A stretch of DNA of 64,000 bases from Thermoanaerobaculia bacterium (GCA_963664405.1 OY761158.1:4864001-4928000); one strand, 5' to 3'; shown: positions 4,660 through 62,974, counted from the stretch's first letter. Translations and numbers: made by a program. The notes: generated from the letters alone by a model not told the origin.

Positions 4660-5070
4660 CTACTCGAGGACCGCGACACCAAGGTCGGGAAAGCGACGAT
4701 CGAAAGTGTAGATGCGAGGCGGTCCAATCTCACGAGCCTGCGCCCACTGCATTGCGTCGGCGAACGAGACGCGCCTCGAATCGCGACAAAGCGAGAGCGC
4801 TTCGAGGGCAACGGGCTTCGAGAGGGAGAGCAGCTTCAGATTGCGACGCCGAATCAACGCTTGCAGGGCGTCGACTGTCGAGGCCCGGGCGACGCCATAG
4901 ACCGAAGTCAGAACGTAGGCGACCTCGACCAGCACCAGCTCACTTACGATGCGAAGGTGCTCGCTCTCGATGATCTTTGCGGCCCGCTCCGCGAGGTGAG
5001 GGGGATCATCGGTGAGGTAGCGCACGACCACGCTGCTGTCGAGAAACGCAGCGCCCGATTCCTCACTCAT
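4660..5070 (-). CDS. vapC: PIN-domain VapC toxin
   Basis: FLDSSVVVRYL, E...VL, SFADA, IYTFDRRF acidic PIN residues. Confidence 0.9.
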   Translation of the reverse strand: MSEESGAAFLDSSVVVRYLTDDPPHLAERAAKIIESEHLRIVSELVLVEVAYVLTSVYGVARASTVDALQALIRRRNLKLLSLSKPVALEALSLCRDSRRVSFADAMQWAQAREIGPPRIYTFDRRFPDLGVAVLE

Positions 5071-5344
5071 CCTCAGACTCCTCAGCTTCCGCCACGACAC
5101 TCGCGTTTCTCCACGCCTCGTCGACCGCCTCTCCCCAGGCAGGTGCGTCCGGCCGCACCTTGACCCTCGTCTCGGCGGCAAGGGTCCCGCGCAGGGAGCG
5201 CTCGTGATCGGGCGGAAAGAAGCGAATCTCCACTCGATCCCCAACCGTCTGCTGAACTGCGAGATAGCCCGGCTCAATCCCAAGGCGGTCTCGAATCGAC
5301 TTTTCGATCACAACCTGTCCCTTAGTACCTACTTTCACACTCAT
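5063..5344 (-). CDS. AbrB/MazE/SpoVT-type antitoxin (VapB)
   Basis: VKVGTKGQVVIEKSIRDRLGIEPG; overlaps the vapC start. Confidence 0.85.
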   Translation of the reverse strand: MSVKVGTKGQVVIEKSIRDRLGIEPGYLAVQQTVGDRVEIRFFPPDHERSLRGTLAAETRVKVRPDAPAWGEAVDEAWRNASVVAEAEESEDE

Positions 5345-5361
5345 GTCGTATTACCAACCAC

Positions 5362-5371
5362 AAGTATACTT
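5362..5371. promoter_or_regulatory. Palindrome AAGTATACTT upstream of vapBC, putative operator/-10 region
   Basis: Perfect 10-bp palindrome in an AT-rich patch just upstream of the antitoxin start. Confidence 0.4.
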
Positions 5372-5475
5372 TTCCAATTGAAGTATGACAATTGCCCTCA
5401 GGTCAGTGACTCGCAGCTGGAGCGACCCGCTCATTCGCCTGCGGTCAAGCCTGCGATGAGACTACCCCTTGTTGC

Positions 5476-5799
5476 TCAGGTCGATCCCGTGCCAGAGATT
5501 GCTCGGCCTACTTCTTTCGTGGATCCGCCCAGCGTGAGCACCGAGCGCGCCAGCTGATCTAGCGTCGCCTGACCCTTCTCCAGCTTCGAAACCCTCCCCT
5601 GACTGGTCTTGAGGATCCTTGCGACGCGCTCCTGGGAGAGCTTCTTCTTTCTGCGCCTGGTCTTCAGCTCCTCTCCCAAGCGGATCTTCATGTCGATCAC
5701 GGCCACTTCCTCCGGGCTGAGGCCGAGCCACTCTTCGACGGTGGTCACTCGTCCATCCATGGCCTCGATTCGAGCGCTCTTCTTTGTACTAAGGGGCAT
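5476..5799 (-). CDS. XRE-family HTH antitoxin (HigA-like)
   Basis: LSQERVARILKTSQGRVSKLEKG, downstream of the toxin. Confidence 0.85.
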   Translation of the reverse strand: MPLSTKKSARIEAMDGRVTTVEEWLGLSPEEVAVIDMKIRLGEELKTRRRKKKLSQERVARILKTSQGRVSKLEKGQATLDQLARSVLTLGGSTKEVGRAISGTGST

Positions 5800-5814
5800 C
5801 GCTTACCTCTGCTG

Positions 5815-6147
5815 TCAATTCGCGTCGTACTTCCGTAACAGATTCTTGGCTCTGTCGATCAAGCGCTTTGGCGTTTTGCTCGTCTTCTTGCTGAACACGG
5901 CAACCACGAGAACGGCGTCAACGTCAGATCTGTAGATCACTCGCCACGTCTGACCAGCTTCGTTCACTCGCAGCTCGTGGCAGCCTCGACCGATCGCAGG
6001 CATCGGACGTGAGTGGGGCATCCCGATATTGACGCCTTGCTGAAGCTTTCGGATCAGAAAACCAATCTCGCGCCGCGCGTCAAGCGACACCGGCGGCGTC
6101 TTGATTTCTCCGGCCAGTATCACGAGGGCCTTGTCGGTCGCCCGCAC
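5815..6147 (-). CDS. RelE/HigB (Gp49-like) toxin
   Basis: IKTPP...AR.EIG...LQQG...MPHSRPMPAIG.GCHELR...WRVIY...FSKKT.KTP; GTG start inferred. Confidence 0.85.
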   Translation of the reverse strand: MRATDKALVILAGEIKTPPVSLDARREIGFLIRKLQQGVNIGMPHSRPMPAIGRGCHELRVNEAGQTWRVIYRSDVDAVLVVAVFSKKTSKTPKRLIDRAKNLLRKYDAN

Positions 6148-6160
6148 TCCATACTCGGAA

Positions 6161-6179
6161 ATAATACCAGATCTGGCAT
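6161..6179 (-). promoter_or_regulatory. HigBA-like promoter/operator
   Basis: Near-perfect palindrome ATACCAGATCTGGCAT (6164-6179) overlapping minus-strand TATTAT (6161-6166). Confidence 0.5.
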
Positions 6180-6344
6180 ATCCTGGAAAGCCCGATCGGG
6201 TATAGTTTCGATCTCTTCCGACCCTCTGTGTCTGTGCACCGCTGAGCGGTTCCTCCTCTACTGAAGGACGCAATTGAGGGGGATGGTTCAACGAAGAGGG
6301 TGGTAGGGTCAGTCGCCCATCGAACGCCCTTAGCGAGTGGAATT

Positions 6345-7508
6345 GTGAGCACCATCAGGCGCATTACCGTCCAGGCTTATACCTACGAGCTCGACGACTT
6401 CGGCCCGTCAATCGCTACGTATACAGCTGGGGTCAAACTGAAAGTAGGGAAGTTCGTCGTCACCATCGAGACCGACGACGGATTGAAAGGGAGCTATGCG
6501 CCGCACTTCGGGGCCACCGCGCAGGCGATGGCGCAGGTCCACGCGATGGCGCCAGGCTTGATCGGTCAGGACGCCGAGGAACGGGAGCGGATATTCGAAC
6601 GGCTGAAGATCGGTTTTCGGCATTTCGACAAGACGGGCATCTCGGCCTTGGATACCGCGCTGTGGGATCTTGCGGGTAAGAAGTACGGCGCATCGATCGC
6701 GCAACTCTTGGGCGGGTATCGGAAGAGCTTGCCGGTGTATGCGAGCACGACTCCAGGGCAGAAATCCCCCGGTGGGTTGGACAGCATCGACAAATACGCC
6801 GACTTCGCTGAAGCTTGCATGGAGCGCGGTATTCCCGCTTTCAAGATCCACGGCTTCTTCGACGGCAACGTGAAGAGCGAAATCGGCATCATGAAGGCGG
6901 TTCGCGATCGCGTCGGCGACGGGATGAAACTGATGACGGACCCGGCGTCTTCGCTGACATCTTTCCTGGATGCCGTGGAGGTCGGTCGGGCTTGCGATGA
7001 TCTCGGTTTCTTCTGGTACGAGGACCCCTATCGGGATGCGTCTTCGAGCGCTGTTGCCCACAAACGACTGCGTGACTTCATTCGCACGCCGATGTTGATT
7101 GCCGAGCACATTCGAGGATTCGAACAGAAAGCGGACTTCGTGCTGGCCGGCGGCACCGACATCATGCACATCGATCCCGAGTTGGATGGAGGCATCACCG
7201 GGACGATGAAGTTGGCGCATTTCTGCGACGCCATCGGGATGGAAGTGCAGCTCCATACCGCCGGTCCGATGCATCGCCACTGCATGGCCGCCATTGTGAA
7301 CACGCATTTCTACGAGCTCGGGCTGGTGAATCCAGATCGCGCATGGAACGGTCTTCAACCTCCCATTTATGCAGACGACTACGGCGATCGGATCGACACT
7401 GTCGACGCCAACGGATGTGTAACGGTTCCCACGGGCCCGGGACTTGGGGTGGAGTACGACTGGGACAAGGTCAACGCCTGGGAAACGGGACGGAGGGTTT
7501 TCGAGTGA
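6345..7508 (+). CDS. Mandelate racemase/muconate lactonizing (enolase superfamily) enzyme
   Basis: ALDTALWDLAGK, FKIH, LMTD, WYEDP, AEH, VPTGPGLGVE. Confidence 0.9.
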   Translation: MSTIRRITVQAYTYELDDFGPSIATYTAGVKLKVGKFVVTIETDDGLKGSYAPHFGATAQAMAQVHAMAPGLIGQDAEERERIFERLKIGFRHFDKTGISALDTALWDLAGKKYGASIAQLLGGYRKSLPVYASTTPGQKSPGGLDSIDKYADFAEACMERGIPAFKIHGFFDGNVKSEIGIMKAVRDRVGDGMKLMTDPASSLTSFLDAVEVGRACDDLGFFWYEDPYRDASSSAVAHKRLRDFIRTPMLIAEHIRGFEQKADFVLAGGTDIMHIDPELDGGITGTMKLAHFCDAIGMEVQLHTAGPMHRHCMAAIVNTHFYELGLVNPDRAWNGLQPPIYADDYGDRIDTVDANGCVTVPTGPGLGVEYDWDKVNAWETGRRVFE

Positions 7509-52450: not shown

Positions 52451-52550
52451 ATGGCCCGTAGTCGTGGCAGCCACGCTAAAATAGCGGGGTCGAGACCCAG
52501 AACGCTGCGGAATGATCGGGGAGCACTTCTTGTTCGAAAGAGCAGCTACC

Positions 52551-53183
52551 ATGCAACGACGTTGCCAACAGGCCCTTGTGGCGGCGCTGCTCACGGCCGT
52601 CCTCGGCTCCGTCCTGACCGGTTGTGCGAGCTCGACCACGCCGGGCGCTCCGTCGCCCAGCCCGGCCGCAGTGTCTCCACCTTCTCCGCCTACAGCGTCT
52701 CCACCGTCCCCTCCGAGCGGCGGTACTTCGCCCTCGACGGGTTCGGCCAAAGCGAAGGCGGGTCGGGCGCCCTCACCTTCGGGTGCTTCGACCGCGGATG
52801 AGCGCGTGGCGTCTCTCGACGGTGAGCTACGGGCATCGCTGGATGAGTTCGACGAGAAGCTGTTGAAAGACCAGAAGGTGCAGGCCGAGCAGCGTGAGGC
52901 CGCCGCCGCTGGAGCAGGGCTAGGGGGTAGCGGCTTCGAGGCGGGTTCCACCGCGGCCGGAGCCGGCGGTGCGGCCGGACTTTCTTCGGCGCCCGAGCTC
53001 GACGGGGCTACCCGCGAAGCGCGCACTCCCGAGAATGTCGGTGATGGTCATGACGACGACGTGGTCGCTCGCCAGCTCAGGGAGGCCGCCCAGCGCGAAC
53101 AGAACCCGGGACTCCGAGAGAAGATCTGGGAAGAATATCGACAGTACAAGGCGGCTACCACGAAGTCGCGCAAAGAAGCCTGA
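52551..53183 (+). CDS. Lipoprotein (operon gene 1)
   Basis: Lipobox LTGC, P/S-rich linker, LDGELRASLDEFD, DDDVVARQLREAA..E..P.LREKIWEEYRQYK. Confidence 0.8.
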   Translation: MQRRCQQALVAALLTAVLGSVLTGCASSTTPGAPSPSPAAVSPPSPPTASPPSPPSGGTSPSTGSAKAKAGRAPSPSGASTADERVASLDGELRASLDEFDEKLLKDQKVQAEQREAAAAGAGLGGSGFEAGSTAAGAGGAAGLSSAPELDGATREARTPENVGDGHDDDVVARQLREAAQREQNPGLREKIWEEYRQYKAATTKSRKEA

Positions 53184-53194
53184 GTACCTTCGTT

Positions 53195-54415
53195 ATGCGT
53201 CGACAGCGTCTCGCTCTTCTTTCCGCTCTTCTTCTCGTGGCCAGCGCCGCCTGGGGAGCCGCCGACAAGGACCTCTTCGTCGAGGCGATACAGGCCTCTT
53301 TCGAGGTGCCTGAAGATCAGCTTCTCGACGTGGGTGTTCGCATCCTTTCGCCGGGTCTTCCCGAGGACGACCCGGGGGCCAAGGAAGACAAGGGTGTTTT
53401 CGAGGATCTCCGAAAATCCGAGTCCCGCTTCATTCCCTTCCACCTCGCCGATACTTTGCAGTCGACCGGGCATTGGGGAGCGGTTCGGGTCATTCCTGAC
53501 GGACTTCGCAGCGTTGACGTCCTGATCAGCGGCGAGATCCTTGCCTCGAACGGCCGTGAGCTTCTCGTTCGCCTACGCGCCGAGGACGCGACGGGCCGAA
53601 AGTGGTTCGAGCGCAAATATCAAGACATCGCTTCGTCCGCGGACTACCGCGACGATGCGGCGGCGGGCGGCGAGCCTCATCAGACCCTCTACAACCAGTT
53701 CGCCAATGACCTCCTCGTCGCCCGCGGCGGGATCAAGCCGGATCAGCTCCGGGAGATCCACACCGTGTCGCGGCTGCGTTTCGCCGCCGACCTGGCGCCG
53801 GACCCTTTCGCCGGATATCTCGAGATCAACAGGAAGGGGCGCGTAAAGGTTGTTCACGTGCCCGCCCAGGACGATCCGATGATGGCTCGCGTCGACGAGA
53901 TTCGAGAGCGCGATCACATGCTGGTGGATGCACTCAACGAGTACTACGCAACCTTCTACTCGCAGATGGACCGCCCCTACGATGAATGGCGCTCGTTCAG
54001 CTACGACGAGGAAATGACCATGCGAAAGCTCCGTCACCAGGCACGGATGCAGAAGCTGATCGGACTGGCGGCGATTCTTGGCGCCGCTGTTGCGCCAGGC
54101 AACAGCACGGCCGCTTCGGCTGGGCGAACCACCGCCGCTGTTGTGGGCTCCATGGTCCTGAGTAATGGCATGTCGACGAGCCCCGAGGTGAAGATGCACA
54201 TCGAGGCGATCCGCGAGCTGGCGGGCTCGTTCGACCAGGAGATGACACCCCTTCTCGTCGAAGTCGACGGCCAGACACTGAAGCTCTCGGGCTCGGCCGA
54301 GTCTCAGTTCGAGGAATGGCGCGAGCTGCTGCGAAAGCTGTTCGCCGCCGAAACCGGAGTCGAAGTCGATGCGAACACCGGGGAGCCGATCGCTGGAACC
54401 AGTGACGGAGTCTGA
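53195..54415 (+). CDS. Secreted hypothetical protein (operon gene 2)
   Basis: Signal peptide AWG-A; alpha/beta N-domain; Gly/Ala-rich hydrophobic hairpin near the C-terminus. Confidence 0.8.
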   Translation: MRRQRLALLSALLLVASAAWGAADKDLFVEAIQASFEVPEDQLLDVGVRILSPGLPEDDPGAKEDKGVFEDLRKSESRFIPFHLADTLQSTGHWGAVRVIPDGLRSVDVLISGEILASNGRELLVRLRAEDATGRKWFERKYQDIASSADYRDDAAAGGEPHQTLYNQFANDLLVARGGIKPDQLREIHTVSRLRFAADLAPDPFAGYLEINRKGRVKVVHVPAQDDPMMARVDEIRERDHMLVDALNEYYATFYSQMDRPYDEWRSFSYDEEMTMRKLRHQARMQKLIGLAAILGAAVAPGNSTAASAGRTTAAVVGSMVLSNGMSTSPEVKMHIEAIRELAGSFDQEMTPLLVEVDGQTLKLSGSAESQFEEWRELLRKLFAAETGVEVDANTGEPIAGTSDGV

Positions 54416-56300
54416 GCCCGGCGAGCTGAGAGTCGGCGGCGTTCTCGGCGAGCGCTTCAGGCTGGTGCGGCGTCTCGGCTCGAGCGTCATGGCCGAGGTC
54501 TGGGTCGTCGCGGACACGGCCGGCGATCGCGAGCTGGTGGCAAAGATCGTCGGACCTGGATCCGCCGCGGGGAGCCTCGAGCTTCTCGAACGGGAACATC
54601 GGTTGCAAAGTAGGTTCGACCATCCCCATGTGCTCGCTGTCGAGGGCTTCCAGCCCAGCTCCCAGTACACGATTCTGACCTTCCTCTACCTCGAAGGTGG
54701 CGATCTCAGGAGCCTCCGCGGCGCGGAGCCGCAACGTGTCGTAGAGCGCGTGCTGCCGATCGTTGAAGCGTTGGAGGTACTCCACGCCGGCGGAGTCATT
54801 CATCGCGACCTCAAGCCGGAGAACATTCTCCTCGACGCGGCCGGCACCCCCTACCTCTCGGACTTCGGAATCGCGGGTGAGGTCACGCCGGCTGAGGGCG
54901 AGCGAGAGATTCGAGCGGGTGGCTCCCGCGCCTACGCCAGCCCGCAGCAGCTCGCCGGCGAGCCCTCTCTCCCGAGCGACGATCTCTTTGCTCTCGGAGC
55001 CCTCCTCTACGAGCTCCTTTCAGGCGAGCTGCCCTTCGGTTCCGGCTCTTTCGACGAGCGCTCGCAGGAGCTCGATCCGCTTCCCGGAGCGGCGCGGGCG
55101 CTGCACCCTCTGGTCGCTTCACTGCTGTCACCTGCTCGGATGAATCGACCGGTGTCGGCGACCGTCGTCGCCGAGGAGCTTCGTCTCTACCTGGAAAGTG
55201 TGCCGGCGGCTGCCGCGAAACCGGCGGCCGCGCAGCCGGCGGCCCCGTTTCCGGTGAGTCGTGTTCGGCCGACTGGAGGACGAGGGAAGCGAGGGCTCGT
55301 CGGGGCAGCCCTTGTTCTTCTCGTTGGAGCTACCGCGGTCGTCTTTCTGGTGCTCCCGGATTGGGCGGCACGGAGACCAGAGCCAACATTGAGCGCGGCT
55401 TCATCCGCGCCAGGGGTAGCCGCCGGGGATACCGGGATCTCGGCCGCTTCCGAGCCAGCGACGGCGGTCGAGGAGATCGCTGCGCAAGAACCTCCGTCGG
55501 CTCCGCGCGAGGCCTCCGCGGTCCCGGCATCTCCGCGTCCCCGAGACACGCGCTGGATCGAGCCGCCGTCGCGTGTCGAGCGCGGAGCGCCACCCGCCGA
55601 TCCCTTTAGAGATGCCATGTCTGAAGGGCACGAGGCACTCTCGGCGGAGGAGTGGGGTCGCGCCAAAGCAGCGTTCGAAAGTGCTCGATCGCTCGACAGA
55701 AGCTCTTCCGCCGCCGCGGACGGGCTGCGCCGGGCGCAAGCAGGCGCTCAGGAGGAAGAGCTTCAGGTGTTGTCGCAGAGGGCCCTCGAAGCCGAGCGCG
55801 GGGAGGAGTGGCGAGCAGCCGCGGCAGCCTATGAGGCGGCGCTGGCGCTCGATCCGTCGGTTCGCTTTGCGCAGGAAGGTCGACGGCGATCGATGAGAAG
55901 AGCAGAGGTCGACGACGCTTTCCGCCTCTACCTGGAACGACCCGACCGTCTCGCGGAGCCGGCCGTGGCGGCGGAGGCGAGTGCCACGCTCGACGAGGCC
56001 GACAACATCGAAGCCCTCGTCGGCACTCGGCTCGCCGGACAGCGCGAGGATCTGCGAGAGGCCCTTCTCAGCGCAAGTCACCCGGTGGTGGTGACGCTGC
56101 TTTCGGATCAGGAGACCGAAGTCACGGTGTATCGAGTCGGCACCCTCGGTAGCTTTGACACTCATACCCTCGAGCTGCGGCCCGGGAACTACACCGTCGT
56201 CGGAATGCGGCGCGGGTATCGCGATGTCCGTCACCGGCTCGTGGTCTCGGCGGAGGGGCCCCCACCGCCCTTACAAGTACGATGTGAGGAGAGACTGTGA
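54402..56300 (+). CDS. Membrane Ser/Thr kinase with TPR-like external region and C-terminal PEGA-like domain (gene 3)
   Basis: VAK, HRDLKPEN, DFG, YASPQQ; TM; LELRPGNYTVVG.R.GYRDVR. Confidence 0.88.
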   Translation: MTESEPGELRVGGVLGERFRLVRRLGSSVMAEVWVVADTAGDRELVAKIVGPGSAAGSLELLEREHRLQSRFDHPHVLAVEGFQPSSQYTILTFLYLEGGDLRSLRGAEPQRVVERVLPIVEALEVLHAGGVIHRDLKPENILLDAAGTPYLSDFGIAGEVTPAEGEREIRAGGSRAYASPQQLAGEPSLPSDDLFALGALLYELLSGELPFGSGSFDERSQELDPLPGAARALHPLVASLLSPARMNRPVSATVVAEELRLYLESVPAAAAKPAAAQPAAPFPVSRVRPTGGRGKRGLVGAALVLLVGATAVVFLVLPDWAARRPEPTLSAASSAPGVAAGDTGISAASEPATAVEEIAAQEPPSAPREASAVPASPRPRDTRWIEPPSRVERGAPPADPFRDAMSEGHEALSAEEWGRAKAAFESARSLDRSSSAAADGLRRAQAGAQEEELQVLSQRALEAERGEEWRAAAAAYEAALALDPSVRFAQEGRRRSMRRAEVDDAFRLYLERPDRLAEPAVAAEASATLDEADNIEALVGTRLAGQREDLREALLSASHPVVVTLLSDQETEVTVYRVGTLGSFDTHTLELRPGNYTVVGMRRGYRDVRHRLVVSAEGPPPPLQVRCEERL

Positions 56301-58441
56301 GCGAGAAGCGCCCTGGCACCGAGCCGCCGCGGCTGGTCGACTCTCCGGAGGTGCACCCTCACAGCGAGCCCGCGTCTCCCATTGAGGTGGCGGCTGCTAT
56401 CGAGCCGGCGACTCCCATTGAGCCGGTGGCATTCAAGCCTAAGCGGCTCGAGGCCGGGTCGGGGCGCAGAGTGTTGCCGACCGCACCTCAGGCCGGGATA
56501 CTGGCTCTCGTGCTTCTCCTGGCACTGGTTGCCTTTGTCTTCTTCACCGCGGTGCCGGTCGAGATCGTGGTCTCTCCCGAGCCCGAGCGCCTGGCGCTGT
56601 CGGGTACCCTGCCCCTGCCGTCGGTCGGTGGCCGGCGTCTCGTGCGCACCGGTCTGCAGGTGATCGAAGCCGAGAAGGCCGGCTATCAGAAGCTCGAACA
56701 GAGCTTCGATGTGGGTCGTGGGAGCGGCCAGTCTTTCCGTTTCGAGCTCGAGAAGCTCGGTGGTGTTCTCGATCTCGAGCTGCAGCCCGCCGACGCTCAG
56801 GTCGAGATCGATGGGGCCGCGATCACTAACCTCGGCGACATTCAGCTGACGCCGGGGGAGCATCGGATCCGAGTCTCTGCCGAGAGGTATCGCGACTTTG
56901 ACCAGAGCGTGAGTATCGAGGGTCTGGGAACGACGACGCCTCTCGCCGTGACACTGGAACCGGCGTGGGCGAGCCTCTCCTTCACCAGCACTCCATCGAG
57001 CGAGTTGCTGCTCGACGGTCGCTCGCTGGGTCGTACTCCGACGACGGTCGAGATCCTCGAGGGTACGCACGATGTCGAGATGCGGGCCTCGCGCTTTCGG
57101 ACTGAGCGGCGTCGGATCGAGGTACGAGCCGGTGAAGATCGGTCGCTTCCGGAGGTGATTCTCGAGCCTGCCGTGGCCCGTCTTCGGGTGGAGAGCGTAC
57201 CGCCGGGTGCCACGGTTCTGATCGACGGCGAGTTCCGTGGCGAAGCGCCGCTGGATGTGGAAGTGGCTCCCGAGAGGGTCCACCAGGTGACGACTTCACT
57301 CGCCGGCTTTGCGCCCGTGCGAAGGGAGGTTTCGGTCGGGGCCGGGGAGGAGCACGACTTGCGCTTGGAGCTGAGCGCGGAGCTCGGTGAGATCCGCCTC
57401 GCAGTCGAGCCCGCCGACGCGACCCTGTGGATCGACGGAGAGGCCTACGGCCCGGCGACGGGTACGCTGCGTCTCCCGGTCGTACCCCTGGCCATCGCCG
57501 TGCGCAAGGACGGCTATGAGACCTACCGCACGACGCTCATCCCGACTCCCGGTATCGAGCAGGTGCTGCAGCTAAGTCTCACCAGCATCGCTGAGATCCG
57601 CGCTGCCGAGACCCCGCCCCGAGTCGAGAGTCCGTTGGGCCAGGACCTGGTGCTCATCGGCACCGGGCGGCTGACTCTAGGAGCGTCTCGACGCGAGCCG
57701 GGTCGGCGCTCCAATGAGACTCTGCACACCGTGGAGCTGACTCGGCCTTTCTATATCTCTGCGCACGAGGTCACCAACGAGGAGTTTCGCGAGTTTCGCG
57801 AAGAGCATCGCTCCGGCGCCGCCGGCGAAGTCAATCTGGAAGGTGACAACAAGCCCGTTGTACGGGTGACTTGGGAGGACGCTATCTTCTATTGCAACTG
57901 GCTGAGCGAGCGCGAGGGATTGCCTGCGGCCTATGAGCGCCGCGACGGAAGGTGGGTGGGCTCTTCGCCGATGACTACCGGCTATCGCCTGCCGAGCGAA
58001 TCGGAGTGGGCCTGGGTAGCGCGTTACCCCGACGCTAAGGACGCGCTCAAGTACCCGTGGGGCGCCAGCATGCCGATTCAGCCGAAATCCGGCAACTACG
58101 CCGATCGATCGACGGGCGCTCTGGTGTCGGGCTCGCGCAGCGGTTACAACGATGGCTTCCCGGCGACCTCGCCGGTGGGTAAGTTTCCGCCGAATCCGTT
58201 GGGTATCTACGACCTCGGTGGCAACGTCGCCGAGTGGGTTCATGATGCCTACTTCATCTACCCTTCCGGCGCCGAAGAGGTTCTGACCGATCCGCTTGGG
58301 CTTGAGGGGGGCGAGCTTCACACGATTCGAGGCTCGAGCTGGATGCACTACAGCGTTTCCGATCTTCGGCTGGCTCACCGCGACTACGGTAGAGACGGTC
58401 GGCCGGATCTCGGTTTCCGCATCGCGAGATACGCTCGTTAG
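56297..58441 (+). CDS. TM + about 5 PEGA repeats + FGE-sulfatase (SUMF1) fold (gene 4)
   Basis: S.P.GA.V.IDG repeats; HEVTNEEF, PVVRVTW.DA..YCNWLS, YRLPSESEW, DLGGNVAEW, GFRIAR. Confidence 0.9.
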   Translation: MSEKRPGTEPPRLVDSPEVHPHSEPASPIEVAAAIEPATPIEPVAFKPKRLEAGSGRRVLPTAPQAGILALVLLLALVAFVFFTAVPVEIVVSPEPERLALSGTLPLPSVGGRRLVRTGLQVIEAEKAGYQKLEQSFDVGRGSGQSFRFELEKLGGVLDLELQPADAQVEIDGAAITNLGDIQLTPGEHRIRVSAERYRDFDQSVSIEGLGTTTPLAVTLEPAWASLSFTSTPSSELLLDGRSLGRTPTTVEILEGTHDVEMRASRFRTERRRIEVRAGEDRSLPEVILEPAVARLRVESVPPGATVLIDGEFRGEAPLDVEVAPERVHQVTTSLAGFAPVRREVSVGAGEEHDLRLELSAELGEIRLAVEPADATLWIDGEAYGPATGTLRLPVVPLAIAVRKDGYETYRTTLIPTPGIEQVLQLSLTSIAEIRAAETPPRVESPLGQDLVLIGTGRLTLGASRREPGRRSNETLHTVELTRPFYISAHEVTNEEFREFREEHRSGAAGEVNLEGDNKPVVRVTWEDAIFYCNWLSEREGLPAAYERRDGRWVGSSPMTTGYRLPSESEWAWVARYPDAKDALKYPWGASMPIQPKSGNYADRSTGALVSGSRSGYNDGFPATSPVGKFPPNPLGIYDLGGNVAEWVHDAYFIYPSGAEEVLTDPLGLEGGELHTIRGSSWMHYSVSDLRLAHRDYGRDGRPDLGFRIARYAR

Positions 58442-58456
58442 AAGGGAGATAGCGAT

Positions 58457-58681
58457 ATGAAGATCAAACTCGTTCTGGTGCTGTTGGTGCTGCTGGCTCC
58501 TCTGCCTCCTCACTCGTCGTCTCAGGAGCCTGCGGAGCCGCCACCGGTGTCTGCACCGCAGACGGTGTCCGGGCCCACGCCGCCTTTGGATGCCGCTGAG
58601 GAGGAGGCCCTACTCGACGAGTTCGTTCCCAGTGAGCAGGTCTCCTTCGACAAGACCATTTCCTTTCCGGTCGACATCTGA
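58457..58681 (+). CDS. Small secreted peptide ending FPVDI (gene 5)
   Basis: Signal peptide, Pro-rich spacer, EFVPSEQVSFDKTISFPVDI; GGGAG RBS. Confidence 0.7.
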   Translation: MKIKLVLVLLVLLAPLPPHSSSQEPAEPPPVSAPQTVSGPTPPLDAAEEEALLDEFVPSEQVSFDKTISFPVDI

Positions 58682-58693
58682 GGTTTGTCTTAA

Positions 58694-59500
58694 ATGCCTG
58701 CAATGCGGCGCACCGGATCGTCCGAGTTCTTGTACCAGCTGGTGACCTTGTTTCTGGCCGTCATCGTGGTTCATGCGCTCTACGTGCTCGTCGTACGACC
58801 CCAGGCCGCCGCTGTGCTTGCCGAGCAGCATGCACAGATGCAGGTGGACCCGACCTATGTCCAGGAGCGGTCGGCGATGGTGGTCATCCGCGATTTCGAG
58901 CAGGAGGCATGCCTGATCTTGTTTCTGTGGGCGATGGCGATCATGGGGTACAAGGGAGTGCAGACGATCCGTGAGCGCCGATTCCTCGACCTGGATCTGG
59001 TCGGTATCGGCGACGGCACGCGTATTCTTGCCGAGGACGCGCGCCAGTATGCGCGTCAGATCCAGGCCTTGCCGATGGCTCAGCAGATGGCGCTGTTGCC
59101 ACGCTCGGTGCTGACGGCGCTCCTGCGTTTTTCTTCCACCGGCAACATCCAAGATGTGTCGACGACGGCTCACGCGCTTTGTGAAGCGGAGGCCGACCGT
59201 CTCGACTCCGAGTTGTCGATGGTGCGCTACATTGCGTGGGCGATCCCATCGATCGGGTTCATCGGCACAGTGCGGGGAATCGGCGACGCCCTCGGGCAGG
59301 CACATCAGGCGGTCGAAGGCGACATCGCCGGCGTCACCCAGAGTCTTGGCGTAGCTTTCAACTCGACCTTCATCGCTCTGCTCCTGTCCATCGTTCTGAT
59401 GTTCCTGCTTCATCAGCTGCAGCTCAACCAGGAGCGGCTGGTGCGCGAGAGCGAGACCTATCTCGACCAGGGCTTGATCCAGAACCTGCAGGCCTCTTGA
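58694..59500 (+). CDS. MotA/TolQ/ExbB proton channel family protein (gene 6)
   Basis: AIPSIGFIGTVRGI and LGVAFNSTFIAL helices; two additional N-terminal hydrophobic segments. Confidence 0.9.
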   Translation: MPAMRRTGSSEFLYQLVTLFLAVIVVHALYVLVVRPQAAAVLAEQHAQMQVDPTYVQERSAMVVIRDFEQEACLILFLWAMAIMGYKGVQTIRERRFLDLDLVGIGDGTRILAEDARQYARQIQALPMAQQMALLPRSVLTALLRFSSTGNIQDVSTTAHALCEAEADRLDSELSMVRYIAWAIPSIGFIGTVRGIGDALGQAHQAVEGDIAGVTQSLGVAFNSTFIALLLSIVLMFLLHQLQLNQERLVRESETYLDQGLIQNLQAS

Positions 59501-59503
59501 TCG

Positions 59504-60892
59504 ATGAGTATTGCGATCGAGATCAACGACGCCGGCCTTTGCGCCGCGGCGGCGTCCAAGGGACTGCTCGATCTCCACAGCCCAGGGATCGCGCTTCTCG
59601 ACGGGGCGACGTTGAGGGTCGGTACTGTTGCCGCTGAGAGCGCGCGTCTGCGTCCTACTCATGTCCACGACCGTTTCTGGGCCGAGCTTGGTCACGAGCC
59701 ACTGTCGCGCCCCTTCCCCCGCGAGTGGAGCGCCGCCGACCTTGCCCACGCCCACCTCGCGGACTTCAGAGCCGGGCTCGGCGAGAGTGTCGACGATGGC
59801 GTGGTTCTTGTGCTGCCCGGATCTTTCTCAGCGCAGAGTGCCGCCCTCCTTCTCGGTATCGCACGAGCGGCGGGGCTACCTGTCGACGGTCTGGTCGATT
59901 CCGCGGTTGCCGCGCTGGCGCGGGGCCGCTCTGCGGGCTCCGGCCCCGTGCTCCATGTCGATTTGGAGCTCCACCGGGCGGTGGTGACGAGCCTCGTCCT
60001 CAGCGGCGGTGTCGTCAGGGAGCGGGTCGAATTGTTGGAGGGTCTGGGTCTGCGAGCCTGGCGCGACGCGGTTGCCCGGAGGATCGCCGAGCTCTTCGTT
60101 CGCGAGACGCGCTTCGACCCCTTGCACTCGGCCGAGAGTGAGCAGGCCCTGCATCTGCTTCTGCCGGCGGTTCTCGACGGCCTCACCAAGAGTGGCGCCA
60201 CCGATGTCGTCCTCCCCGCCGTCGGAGGAGAGCGGCGGCTACGAGTGACTCGAGAAGAGATAAGCCAGGCGCTCGAGCCCCTCACCCACGAGCTGGCGAC
60301 CGCCGTGTCGGTGCGCTTGGCCTCTCTCGGCAGCTCGGCATTGGCTGTTTCGCATCGAGTGGCCGCCCTACCGGGTGTCACCGGCCGCTTCGAGGAGGCG
60401 TCGACAGCGGTCGCAACCCGGCTGCCGGTTGGCGCGGCCGTTCTCGGTGCGGTCGAGCGCGCTGACGAGATCCGGTCGGGAAACGACGCCTTGCCCCTGG
60501 TAGTGCGCCTCGGATCGCAATCGAGCATGACGGCGTCGGACTCGCAAGGGGTTGGTGCGAGCGAGGGCCGTCGCGGGGCGACCCACGCTTTGATCGATGG
60601 AGTAGCCCATTCTCTTCTCAACGCGCCTCTGGCTGTGGGCGTCTCGGTTCCCTCGACGCTCCGCGGTGTGGATCTCGAAGGGGAGGTCGCGGGCATCTCG
60701 CGTCACCACTGCACTCTGGAGTACCTCGAAGGTCGCGCTACGGTGACCGACTGCAGCACCTGGGGAACCTTCTTGAACGACCAGAAGATCGATGCGCCGA
60801 CGGAGGTCCATGCCGGCGATCGAGTTCGCCTAGGGTCTCCAGGGGTGGAGATTCGGATGATTGCCTTGGCGGAGGAAGATGGCTCGGCGTAG
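59504..60892 (+). CDS. Degenerate Hsp70/actin-fold + C-terminal FHA protein (gene 7)
   Basis: VLVLPGSF...ARAAGLPV.GLVD.AVAA; LHVDLELH; ISRHHC...D.STWGTFLN...GDRVRLG. Confidence 0.7.
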   Translation: MSIAIEINDAGLCAAAASKGLLDLHSPGIALLDGATLRVGTVAAESARLRPTHVHDRFWAELGHEPLSRPFPREWSAADLAHAHLADFRAGLGESVDDGVVLVLPGSFSAQSAALLLGIARAAGLPVDGLVDSAVAALARGRSAGSGPVLHVDLELHRAVVTSLVLSGGVVRERVELLEGLGLRAWRDAVARRIAELFVRETRFDPLHSAESEQALHLLLPAVLDGLTKSGATDVVLPAVGGERRLRVTREEISQALEPLTHELATAVSVRLASLGSSALAVSHRVAALPGVTGRFEEASTAVATRLPVGAAVLGAVERADEIRSGNDALPLVVRLGSQSSMTASDSQGVGASEGRRGATHALIDGVAHSLLNAPLAVGVSVPSTLRGVDLEGEVAGISRHHCTLEYLEGRATVTDCSTWGTFLNDQKIDAPTEVHAGDRVRLGSPGVEIRMIALAEEDGSA

Positions 60893-61970
60893 GCTCAGCG
60901 TTTTCTCGCTGTCGTTCCTCGACGCCATTACCTGCGGCTTCGGGGCGGTGATCCTCTTCTTCATGATCATCAACGGCTCGGTCGGCGTGCGCGCCGGGCG
61001 TCTCACCTACGACCTGCGAGCCGAGGTCGACCGGCTCGAGAAGGAGGTGCTCGAGGGGCACGAGAATCTCGTCGACGTACGCAACTCCAAGCGGCGGCAG
61101 GATCGCGAGCTGGTCCAAACCCAGGGACTCTCGCGCCGAGTCCTCTACGACCTGACCCGAGTCGAGCAGGAGCTCGCTGCCTCCGACAAAGACACTCTGG
61201 CGACGCGGGAGCACTTCAACCGGCTCAAGAGCGACATTCAGGCGGCCGAAGAGGCGAATCGGCGGCTTTCGGCCCTCTCTCCATCCGATTCGGTGCCCGG
61301 CGACCGAGTGCGAGCTTTTCTGGGTGAAGGGGATCGCCAGTACCTCACCGGGTTGAATCTGGGTGGCAATCGCATCCTCATCTTGGTCGACGCCTCCGCC
61401 AGCATGCTGGGTGAGAGGTTGGTCAACGTCTTGCGGCGGCGCAATCTCGATCCACGCGTTCGGCGCCAGGCTCGCAAATGGCAACAGGCGGTGGCTACGG
61501 TCGAGTGGCTGCTGACGCAGCTGCCCGAAGGTAGCGAGTTTCAGGTCTACTCGTTCAATACCGCGGCCGGGCCGGTGTTGGCTTCTAGTGGCGGCGGCTG
61601 GCTGCGGGCCGACGATCGATCCAGCCTCGACGGCTTGGTTACCGAGCTCAAGAGGTTGGTCCCCGACGGTGGTACGAGTCTTCACGCCGCCTTCTCGGCG
61701 GTAGCGCAAATGAAGCCGCGCCCCGACAATCTCATTCTGCTCACCGACGGCTTGCCGACCCAGGGCGAGAAAGTGGCGAAGGGAGGGACGGTCAGCGGCC
61801 GGCAGCGAATGAGGTTCTTCAACCGAGCTGTCGACGAGCTACCCAGGTCGATGCCGGTGAACACCATTCTCTTCCCGATGGAGGGCGATCCGCTGGCCTC
61901 GAGCGCCTATTGGCAGCTGGCGGCGGCGACACGAGGGTCCTATCTGACGCCGACGAGGGACTGGCCTTGA
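60879..61970 (+). CDS. ExbD/TolR-like TM + coiled coil + vWA protein (gene 8)
   Basis: FSLSFLDAITCGFGAVILFFMI; DASASM, GGT, LTDG. Confidence 0.85.
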   Translation: MARRRLSVFSLSFLDAITCGFGAVILFFMIINGSVGVRAGRLTYDLRAEVDRLEKEVLEGHENLVDVRNSKRRQDRELVQTQGLSRRVLYDLTRVEQELAASDKDTLATREHFNRLKSDIQAAEEANRRLSALSPSDSVPGDRVRAFLGEGDRQYLTGLNLGGNRILILVDASASMLGERLVNVLRRRNLDPRVRRQARKWQQAVATVEWLLTQLPEGSEFQVYSFNTAAGPVLASSGGGWLRADDRSSLDGLVTELKRLVPDGGTSLHAAFSAVAQMKPRPDNLILLTDGLPTQGEKVAKGGTVSGRQRMRFFNRAVDELPRSMPVNTILFPMEGDPLASSAYWQLAAATRGSYLTPTRDWP

Positions 61971-62974
61971 AGAAGCGCCGCCGCGAAGCCGACCCGTTCT
62001 CGCTGTCGTTTCTCGACGCCATCTGCTGCGGCTTCGGTGCGATCATCATGCTCCTCGTGCTGACCAAGATCGGCGAGCCGGCGGCGATCGAGCAGGCGAG
62101 TGAAGATCTTCACGGGCTGGTGGCGCGTCTTGAAGAGGAGCTATTCGAGATCCGTGGTGAGACCCGCATCCTCAATCGGGATCTGGTGAGCAAAGAAGAG
62201 CAGATCTCCAAGGAGCGCGAGCGCATCGCCCGTCTCGAAGGCGACCTCAGCGAGATCCGCGGCGAGTTCGCGGCCAGCCGGGAGCTCAGCGAAGTCAGTG
62301 ACATCGTCGAAGGAGCGCTGGTGGCGGCGCAACAGGAGCTCAGCGAGGAGATGGAGCGTCTGCTCGGCCGCGATTTCCGCAGAGCCGAGACCGATACGAC
62401 GATCGGGGGCATTCCGGTCGACAGCGAGTACATCATCTTCATTGTCGATACCTCCGGCAGCATGCGTACCTTTGCGTGGCCGGCGATGATGGCCCGGATG
62501 GAAGAGATTCTCGAGGTCTATCCCGCGGTCAAGGGGATCCAGCTGATGAACGACATGGGCCAGTACCTGTTCACTTCCTACGCGGGGAAGTGGATTCCCG
62601 ACACGCCTGGGCGCAGGCGCATCCTTCTTCGGGAGCTGCGCAACTGGGCCGTGTTCTCGAACTCCAGCCCGGTCGAGGGCATCCAGCGGGCGATTCGCAC
62701 CTACGCCAACGGCCGCGACAAGATCTCGCTCTACGTGCTGGGAGACGAGTTCAGCGGCGGGTCCATCGACTCGGTCGTACGCGCGGTCGATCGCCTCAAT
62801 CGGGTGGACGCACGGGGTGAGCGCTTGGTTCGTATCCACGCTATCGGCTTTCCTGTCATGTTCGGGAATGTCGGAGTCAGCGCCAATACCGGGGTCCGCT
62901 TCGCCACCCTGATGCGGGTTCTATGCGAACGAAACGGCGGCTCGTTCGTCGGTTCGCGTAGCTTGATCCCGTGA
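61967..62974 (+). CDS. ExbD/TolR-like TM + coiled coil + vWA protein (gene 9)
   Basis: FSLSFLDAICCGFGAIIMLLVL; DTSGSM, LGDE; TTG start overlaps the upstream TGA. Confidence 0.85.
   Translation: MKKRRREADPFSLSFLDAICCGFGAIIMLLVLTKIGEPAAIEQASEDLHGLVARLEEELFEIRGETRILNRDLVSKEEQISKERERIARLEGDLSEIRGEFAASRELSEVSDIVEGALVAAQQELSEEMERLLGRDFRRAETDTTIGGIPVDSEYIIFIVDTSGSMRTFAWPAMMARMEEILEVYPAVKGIQLMNDMGQYLFTSYAGKWIPDTPGRRRILLRELRNWAVFSNSSPVEGIQRAIRTYANGRDKISLYVLGDEFSGGSIDSVVRAVDRLNRVDARGERLVRIHAIGFPVMFGNVGVSANTGVRFATLMRVLCERNGGSFVGSRSLIP

Follow-up and report, generated by a model that had tools for sequence, protein, structure and literature searches.

The window analysed here is a stretch of 64,000 nucleotides from a Thermoanaerobaculia bacterium (GCA_963664405.1 OY761158.1:4864001-4928000). 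Nine genes lie in it head to tail on the plus strand (52512-62974), and this operon is closed by two adjacent genes encoding the vWA-domain proteins named here vWA1 and vWA2. A dimer of these two proteins is probably the inner component, or B-subunit, of a proton-driven motor of the 5:2 type, whose A-subunit would be the TolQ/ExbB/MotA-family channel protein encoded by the sixth gene of the same operon. A preliminary description of the locus, made from the sequence alone, had proposed that the vWA pair supplies the missing B-subunits of this motor, with vWA heads replacing the ExbD or OmpA fold. The proposal is supported by the invariance of a membrane aspartate, by the predicted topology of both proteins, by the lack of an ExbD belonging to this motor and by the co-occurrence of the genes. 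The B-subunit reading is not new, as it has already been printed as a computational prediction (PMC12204202; Mol Biol Evol 2025, 'Origin and Evolution of Bacterial Periplasmic Force Transducers'). The features on which it is based at this locus are listed below.

60879..61970, plus strand: vWA1, 363 amino acids (aa), ATG start; Pfam matches VWA_3 (3.2e-07) and VWA_2 (1.1e-06)
60921..60923, plus strand: codon of Asp15 in the membrane helix of vWA1, the proposed proton-binding residue
61389..61403, plus strand: metal-ion-dependent adhesion site (MIDAS) motif of vWA1, D171-A-S-A-S175 (DASAS)
61967..62974, plus strand: vWA2, 335 aa, paralogue of vWA1 with the same layout, TTG start
62015..62017, plus strand: codon of Asp17 in the membrane helix of vWA2
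62447..62461, plus strand: MIDAS motif of vWA2, D161-T-S-G-S165 (DTSGS)
58694..59500, plus strand: TolQ/ExbB/MotA-family channel protein ("the motor protein"), 268 aa, proposed pentameric A-subunit (PF01618, 1.2e-13)
59267-59269, plus strand: T192 of the motor protein, in GTVRGIG, invariant in the 64 rows of its alignment (A2)
59360-59368, plus strand: N223-S224-T225 of the motor protein, invariant in the same 64 rows of A2

Translation from the ATG at 60879 gives vWA1 the N-terminus MARRRLSVFSLSFLDAITCGFGA, and translation from the TTG at 61967 gives vWA2 the N-terminus MKKRRREADPFSLSFLDAICCGFGA. This TTG is most likely the start of vWA2, judging from the orthologues, which begin 9-12 residues ahead of FSLSFLD. 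It overlaps the vWA1 stop codon (TTGA), and the vWA1 start overlaps the 3' end of the preceding FHA gene by 14 bases. Both proteins open, as the preliminary description had reported, with a basic N-terminus followed by a near-identical start of a transmembrane (TM) helix, FSLSFLDAI(T/C)CGFGA, which includes Asp15 or Asp17 and is the same in vWA1 and vWA2 at 14 of its 15 positions. Hydropathy analysis detects one hydrophobic segment per protein, at the N-terminus. The two proteins are clear paralogues by sequence comparison, with 28% identity overall (BLASTP, 2e-13) and a profile alignment by hhalign over 257 columns (probability 99.9%, E 7e-34).

The long coiled coil and the MIDAS-bearing vWA domain that had been announced behind this helix were recovered as well: the DASAS and DTSGS motifs are present, and the helix and the vWA fold are returned by AlphaFold2 and Foldseek. 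In the AlphaFold2 model of vWA1 (71-row alignment; predicted local distance difference test, pLDDT, 89.9), residues 8-132 form a single unbroken helix, with approximately 8-32 as its membrane part and the rest, about 100 residues, as a stalk. A low-confidence, disordered linker (133-164) and a compact vWA head (165-363) come after it. Among solved vWA domains, Foldseek matched this head with those of Cav alpha2-delta, CLCA1, 4fx5 and BatB (E ~2e-7, probability 1.00). The corresponding domain of vWA2 lies below Pfam detection (VWA_2, E 0.071) and its head is assigned to the vWA fold because of the paralogy with vWA1.

Relatives of vWA1 are numerous, at least 6472 at E 0.001 (of 8000 scored candidates), and every one of the best 120 listed is 362-368 aa long; this constancy among the best 120 suggests that the length of the stalk matters. 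A search of cluster representatives returned 1462 proteins at E <=0.001, of which 320 at <=1e-30. Conservation in vWA1 was read from a joint alignment of vWA1 and 107 representatives, each 330-400 aa long, in which 12 of the 108 rows are gapped at the N-terminus, and from a second alignment of 71 rows (A1); for vWA2 an alignment of 63 rows (A3) was used. In addition, the window proteins were compared by tblastn with 80 related loci outside the window's phylum (Desulfuromonadales, Gammaproteobacteria, Myxococcales, Kiritimatiellae, Bacteroidota and Rhodospirillaceae).

The membrane aspartate, on whose conservation in homologs the preliminary description had staked its proposal, is kept throughout. 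Asp15 is D in 96/96 vWA1 representatives having the N-terminus and is also invariant in A1; F13 is as invariant, and C19, G20, G22, A23 and L26 are nearly so in the alignment of representatives. In vWA2, Asp17 belongs to a set of residues invariant in 63/63 rows of A3 (S14, F15, L16, D17, C21, F23, G24 and A25), and the helix motif was found in 76/77 orthologous open reading frames (ORFs), the lone exception being a truncated ORF call. The invariance of the Asp-bearing motif across phyla is far beyond chance. The metal sites are kept too: S173, D290 and T294 of vWA1 are invariant and its D171 and S175 are kept in at least 90%, and D161, S163, S165 and D260 of vWA2 are invariant in A3, with Ser replacing the usual Thr region. 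Both heads thus conserve MIDAS ligands and are predicted to bind metal.

This conservation bears directly on the foremost alternative, which is that vWA1 and vWA2 are periplasmic adhesins or scaffolds standing outside the pentamer, as TolA and TonB do, or acting in the same pathway, with a motor that borrows an ExbD/TolR or runs without a B-subunit. Such an arrangement is improbable, even if a first vWA family proposed to bind at the motor's side, for which no deletion phenotypes have yet been reported, offers a precedent (PMC12204202), and even if the helix is without significant sequence homology to ExbD or MotB. The vWA helices are devoid of His and of any SHLS-type motif, and their Asp is invariant. 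Moreover, the membrane helix is the best-conserved segment of vWA1 and of vWA2. Its mean majority-residue share over the related loci reaches 0.84 in vWA1 and 0.91 in vWA2, equal to what the motor protein shows in its final two helices (0.94 and 0.88) and not to the plain membrane anchors of two other operon products, the PEGA/FGE protein (0.47) and the kinase (0.48). Since their conservation is on a par with that of the motor helices, unlike that of the anchors, the vWA helices are not plain anchors.

The orientation of both proteins was deduced from the distribution of basic residues. The count of Lys and Arg is higher before the helix than after it in 74/74 vWA2 sequences; for vWA1 it is higher before the helix in 52/80, equal in 20/80 and lower in 8/80. 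By the positive-inside rule, which is a heuristic, the N-terminus is predicted to be cytoplasmic and the stalk and head to lie outside the cytoplasm. Cytoplasmic vWA domains, which would have spoken against the original proposal, are therefore not what this rule indicates. The signal peptides and the lipobox of neighbouring products agree with a machine that acts in the periplasm.

The channel protein itself is recognizable at several levels. The GTV and NST motifs that had been attributed to gene 6 are both found in the product of 58694-59500, as T192 and residues 223-225. Its AlphaFold2 model (pLDDT 90.2) was compared with solved structures by Foldseek, and ExbB, TolQ, ZorA and MotA chains make up nearly all of the first 49 listed matches, with a best E of 1.6e-3 and TM-scores up to 0.59/0.70 (Acinetobacter baumannii TolQ). 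At the sequence level, the motor profile gave no match to PDB sequences at E 0.01, and at E 10 it matched TolQ only (8odt_A, with a weak E of 0.017). In this alignment T192 falls on Thr145 and T225 on Thr178 of the solved Escherichia coli TolQ, which we take to be the two pore threonines of the TolQ family.

The genome consists of a single 6.78-Mb contig, 97% complete, in which MotA_ExbB and ExbD are each matched three times. One ExbB/TolQ-type cluster, at 3.510-3.512 Mb, has two tandem ExbD genes alongside, and another, at 6.754-6.756 Mb, has one, so that the window motor is the only one of the three MotA_ExbB genes without a neighbouring exbD. (The tandem ExbD proteins of the 3.51 Mb cluster have a variant helix start, ..ASMADIAFLLII...) The three ExbD genes could in principle act in trans, but each of them already stands beside another ExbB/TolQ gene. 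A hidden Markov model (HMM) built from 33 ExbD sequences of the window's phylum, which recovers the genome's own ExbD genes, gave no match in the 64-kb window, and MotB_plug gave none in the whole genome, in agreement with the earlier statement that a canonical exbD, tolR or motB is lacking. The same holds at the related loci, in 79/80 of which the ExbD HMM finds nothing within ~10 kb; at the lone positive locus (1/80) the ExbD genes have the opposite orientation and lie at its far end. ExbD as such was present in 41/41 genomes searched.

The association of the two vWA proteins with each other was addressed by structure prediction. The vWA1-vWA2 complex model reached an ipSAE of 0.69 (0.68-0.71 in three runs), the best control scoring 0.00; at this mark a benchmark, which is rough and for which own alignments were used, retains 58/80 solved complexes and 2/110 mismatched pairs. 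Partner pLDDT is at least 71 and at least 69% of the contacts are common to the runs. The two chains run parallel and pair in register, shifted by two residues, as are Asp15 and Asp17. The contacts comprise the membrane helices (vWA1 17-31 with vWA2 19-30), a heptad-spaced series along the stalks (vWA1 39-99 with vWA2 41-104) and a head-to-head interface. This modelling supports the binding of vWA1 and vWA2 as a parallel, in-register heterodimer. Asp15 and Asp17 stand outside the confident contacts, which start at 17 and 19; their absence would fit aspartates facing outward from the dimer, residues not named among the contacts being merely uncertain.

Gene order links this pair closely to the motor. 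At the related loci vWA2 comes directly after vWA1 in 80/80 cases and the motor gene is directly upstream in 78/80. One of the two motor-less loci is cut by a contig end. At the locus L014, from a metagenome-assembled genome of Kiritimatiellae, the vWA pair (4950-7030) is without the other operon genes and has a cation-efflux gene upstream. The motor orthologue of this genome (E 2.9e-125) is on another contig, which indicates that the operon is split there. Within the window's own phylum, a vWA2 orthologue was found in 5/201 sampled genomes and a motor orthologue in precisely these 5, where the two genes share a contig and are separated by 2.5-3.5 kb; the thresholds were chosen by the authors (E <=1e-20 for vWA2, E <=1e-40 for the motor) and related genomes are not independent. 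An unpublished genome, G024, is counted only in these 201-genome tallies. The system is absent from both sampled genomes (0/2) of the source organism's family, and the operon proteins nevertheless share ~50% identity with their counterparts in Proteobacteria and other phyla. Such a patchy spread, combined with this level of identity across phyla, suggests a horizontally moved accessory module.

The Asp-bearing helix was also sought in longer proteins. Three of them (P0271-P0273; 677-703 aa) begin with it, and their length is approximately the sum of vWA1 and vWA2. Pfam detects vWA domains in two of these proteins and no other domain in any. They are probably read-through or merged gene calls, because the membrane topology would not allow a genuine fusion. 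No other type of head on the same helix was found in this search for longer proteins.

Several points weigh against the assignment of the vWA pair as B-subunits, beginning with the homology of the helix itself. Pfam is empty for the first 50 residues of vWA1 and vWA2 at E values up to 10. By hhalign, the N-terminal profile of vWA1 matches that of the 33 ExbD sequences with a probability of only 3% (score 16.2), and that of 20 MotB N-termini with 6.6% (score 16.7). The vWA helices also have a CGFGA motif after the Asp, which ExbD and MotB lack. The positive-inside counts of vWA1 are not unanimous, owing to the 8/80 sequences with fewer basic residues before the helix. The hetero-pair of the preliminary description stands in so far as the parallel heterodimer model passes its controls, but the model does not tell a heterodimer from homodimers, because vWA1 and vWA2 are paralogues. 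Lastly, vWA1 and vWA2 fit the description of the trans-pore-helix vWA (TPH-vWA) class of PMC12204202, of which they would form a further member in another phylum, the identity of the two families being based on matching descriptions rather than on a sequence comparison.

The weakness of the profile matches has to be read together with their register and with a control. The ExbD alignment covers 7 columns around the Asp, with SFLDAIT on PLVDVML, and sets Asp on Asp, its score being matched by 4/150 column shuffles. The MotB alignment equally sets Asp on Asp, with a score matched by 2/150 column shuffles. When ExbD was compared with MotB in the same way, the probability was 10.9% and the score 22.4, again Asp on Asp. 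As these two accepted B-subunit families also match each other weakly, the profile method has low power on so short a helix. The comparison with ExbD and MotB suggested at the outset, with its weak but register-correct matches, speaks neither for nor against common descent.

Membership of the known B-subunit families was considered separately and rejected. For ExbD/TolR (PF02472) there is no profile match, and the periplasmic part consists of a coiled coil and a vWA domain; for MotB (PF13677 MotB_plug plus an OmpA-like domain) there is neither a Pfam match nor an OmpA-like domain. By family definition, vWA1 and vWA2 are not ExbD, TolR or MotB, because they are without those periplasmic domains.

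Starting from the assignment of the vWA pair as B-subunits, we infer insertion into the pentamer, proton coupling, transmission of force and binding of a ligand in the following manner. The two proteins would form a parallel heterodimer whose Asp-bearing helices stand side by side in the pore of the pentamer encoded by 58694-59500, in the role of ExbD, TolR or MotB. Proton flow by way of Asp15/Asp17 and Thr192/Thr225 would make the dimer turn against the pentamer, or pull it. The coiled-coil stalk, ~10-15 nm long, would carry this movement to the two metal-dependent vWA heads in the periplasm, and these heads would hold a partner that is probably another product of the nine-gene operon. The remaining six genes are as follows.

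52512..53183, plus strand: probable lipoprotein, first gene of the conserved cluster, lipobox LTGC, likely ATG 52551; 63/80 loci
53195..54415, plus strand: secreted protein, 406 aa, signal-peptide-like start, no Pfam family; 66/80 loci
54369..56300, plus strand: membrane Ser/Thr kinase, 643 aa (Pkinase, 1.4e-29); 68/80 loci
56297..58441, plus strand: membrane-anchored periplasmic PEGA/FGE protein, 714 aa; 73/80 loci
58457..58681, plus strand: small secreted acidic protein, 74 aa, tail FPVDI, signal-peptide-like start
59504..60892, plus strand: cytoplasmic protein, 462 aa, C-terminal FHA domain (3.1e-12), no TM segment; 59/80 loci

The kinase is composed of a cytoplasmic kinase domain, a TM helix (310-328) and a periplasmic C-terminal part. 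The PEGA/FGE protein has a TM helix at 68-86, PEGA matches in 4 stretches (4.2e-39) and a C-terminal FGE-sulfatase fold (9.8e-42); in the window's genome its cytoplasmic N-terminus of ~67 residues is proline-rich. Residues 1-360 of the FHA protein gave only unnamed clusters in the protein atlas, with no known family, and its gene is an optional member of the operon, missing from 21/80 loci, mainly of Desulfuromonadales type. The kinase is missing from 12/80. Together these two absences point to a regulatory layer rather than to a core.

The small acidic protein belongs regularly to the operon, but its sequence is poorly conserved apart from its last ~20 residues. A tail of the form ..P[ST]E......[FY]P.[DN]I-COOH ends the ORF just upstream of the motor gene in 67/73 loci, and among all plus-strand ORFs of the loci this motif occurs in 74/3786, almost only in ORFs upstream of the motor. 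This product is a candidate ligand of the MIDAS heads or of the PEGA/FGE protein.

The genes that surround the operon are unrelated to it: a PA-domain gene, a metallo-beta-lactamase gene and a deacetylase gene upstream, and a HAD hydrolase gene downstream that is not conserved at the related loci. A scan for promoters and terminators was uninformative: no promoter-like site was found, and terminator-like sites numbered 8 where 7.0 were expected.

What these nine genes accomplish together can only be proposed tentatively, with appreciable doubt. They may build a phosphorylation-tuned, proton-driven machine that spans the periplasm, parallel in design to the PorLM-PorKN core of type IX secretion, in which the TolQ-like pentamer would turn the heterodimeric coiled-coil shaft and the vWA heads would grip, as the best candidates, either the FPxDI-COOH tail or the PEGA/FGE protein, and which would move or remodel a target in the wall or the outer membrane. 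If this were true, such a nine-gene machine would represent a new output class for 5:2 motors.

Another purpose, an improbable one, would be Zorya-like conflict or defence against phages: the MotA-like channel, with its envelope-spanning partners, would detect envelope damage, and the kinase and the FHA protein would relay the signal. In its favour, PADLOC matches the motor protein weakly to ZorA (E 0.0017), and the patchy distribution of the system (5/201 genomes, 0/2 of the same family), together with its identity across phyla, suggests horizontal spread. Kinase, FHA, vWA and FGE-type domains also recur in conflict systems (PMC7159879). PADLOC otherwise returned only generic kinase-domain matches, however, and nothing for 6/9 proteins. 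The flanking genes are ordinary, the base composition is not unusual, and neither the order of the genes nor the length of their products varies between phyla, unlike in typical fast-changing defence loci. This alternative moreover concerns the purpose of the machine and is compatible with vWA1 and vWA2 being its B-subunits. It is very unlikely that the complex is instead a gated ion channel or sensor, whose state would be read by the membrane kinase and the FHA protein and whose vWA heads, with intact metal sites typical of ligand receptors, would be the receptors, since Thr and Asp are conserved in the arrangement known from the energy-transducing family and since the signalling layer is dispensable, the motor and the vWA pair staying where the kinase or the FHA gene is missing.

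The assignment of the vWA pair as the B-subunits has consequences beyond this locus. Flagella, the import of nutrients, the upkeep of the outer membrane, gliding, type IX secretion and a phage defence system all draw on MotA/ExbB/TolQ-family motors, and each new type of partner for these motors has revealed a new route for the delivery of energy to the envelope. If the assignment is true, integrin-like metal-dependent heads on a shaft of fixed length would constitute a direct mechanical link between the proton gradient and a ligand. The class is widespread, with more than 6000 relatives, and is found in Acidobacteriota, Proteobacteria, Desulfuromonadales, Myxococcales, Kiritimatiellae and Bacteroidota.

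Among the known systems, ExbB-ExbD and TolQ-TolR resemble the present one in the family and fold of the A-subunit, in which both pore threonines align, and their ExbD/TolR partner resembles vWA1 and vWA2 by its short basic N-terminus, by its single helix with an early Asp and by the Asp-on-Asp profile alignments. This partner is a homodimer, whereas two different partner genes are found here, and the vWA proteins have a coiled coil and a vWA head instead of an ExbD domain. Unlike in Ton and Tol, no TonB- or TolA-like third protein is evident. The AglR-AglQ-AglS machine of Myxococcus xanthus gliding, which spans the envelope, also combines one TolQ/MotA-like protein with two B-type partners; AglQ and AglS are ordinary members of the TolR/ExbD family, whereas the partners here are vWA proteins.

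In type IX secretion and gliding, PorL-PorM/GldL-GldM and PorK/GldK likewise bring together a channel of MotA type, a dimeric partner with a single helix that reaches across the periplasm, and a protein of FGE-sulfatase fold. The PEGA/FGE protein matches the GldK/PorK model at 1.1e-27 with 97 bits, the cut-off being 350, so that this is a likeness at the level of the fold, and hence of design, and not a membership of type IX systems. PorK/GldK is an outer-membrane lipoprotein, unlike the FGE protein of this operon, which is anchored by a helix in the inner membrane, and the stalk here is a coiled coil with a vWA head and not a series of PorM domains. ZorA-ZorB of Zorya is likewise a MotA-family 5:2 complex with a use other than flagella, Ton or Tol, and the structural matches of the motor protein include ZorAB (8vvn_D); here, however, it is the B-type partner that bears the long stalk, and not the A-subunit as in Zorya. 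Membership of Zorya was rejected, as the ZorA match is weak and no ZorB, ZorC or ZorD was found, and so was the BatA/BatB aerotolerance type, for which BatB (3ibs) matches the head only and no MoxR or DUF58 is present among the nine operon proteins.

The closest counterpart is the TPH-vWA class, predicted computationally in section 8 of PMC12204202, whose second, trans-pore, vWA family rests on computation. Its members co-occur tightly with tolQ homologues, without tolR or exbD and mostly as heterologous pairs, and have a conserved Asp in the trans-pore helix; AlphaFold 3 models place the two Asp residues within the pentamer's ring of Thr. The likeness with the present locus extends to the paired helix-tethered vWA proteins, the tolQ-like neighbour, the absence of tolR and exbD, the Asp of the helix and the absence of an SHLS motif. 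That paper, whose seed is an Idiomarina protein, names Proteobacteria and Verrucomicrobia, and the string 'Acidobacteri' is absent from its text; its taxa overlap with the related loci collected here in Gammaproteobacteria and Kiritimatiellae. It mentions no operon partners, kinase, sulfatase/FGE, PEGA or FHA domain, the string 'FHA' standing there for FhaC, and no description of the nine-gene operon was found in full-text literature searches. This locus adds no principle beyond the 2025 prediction, but it adds a phylum and a conserved nine-gene operon with candidate ligands and regulators.

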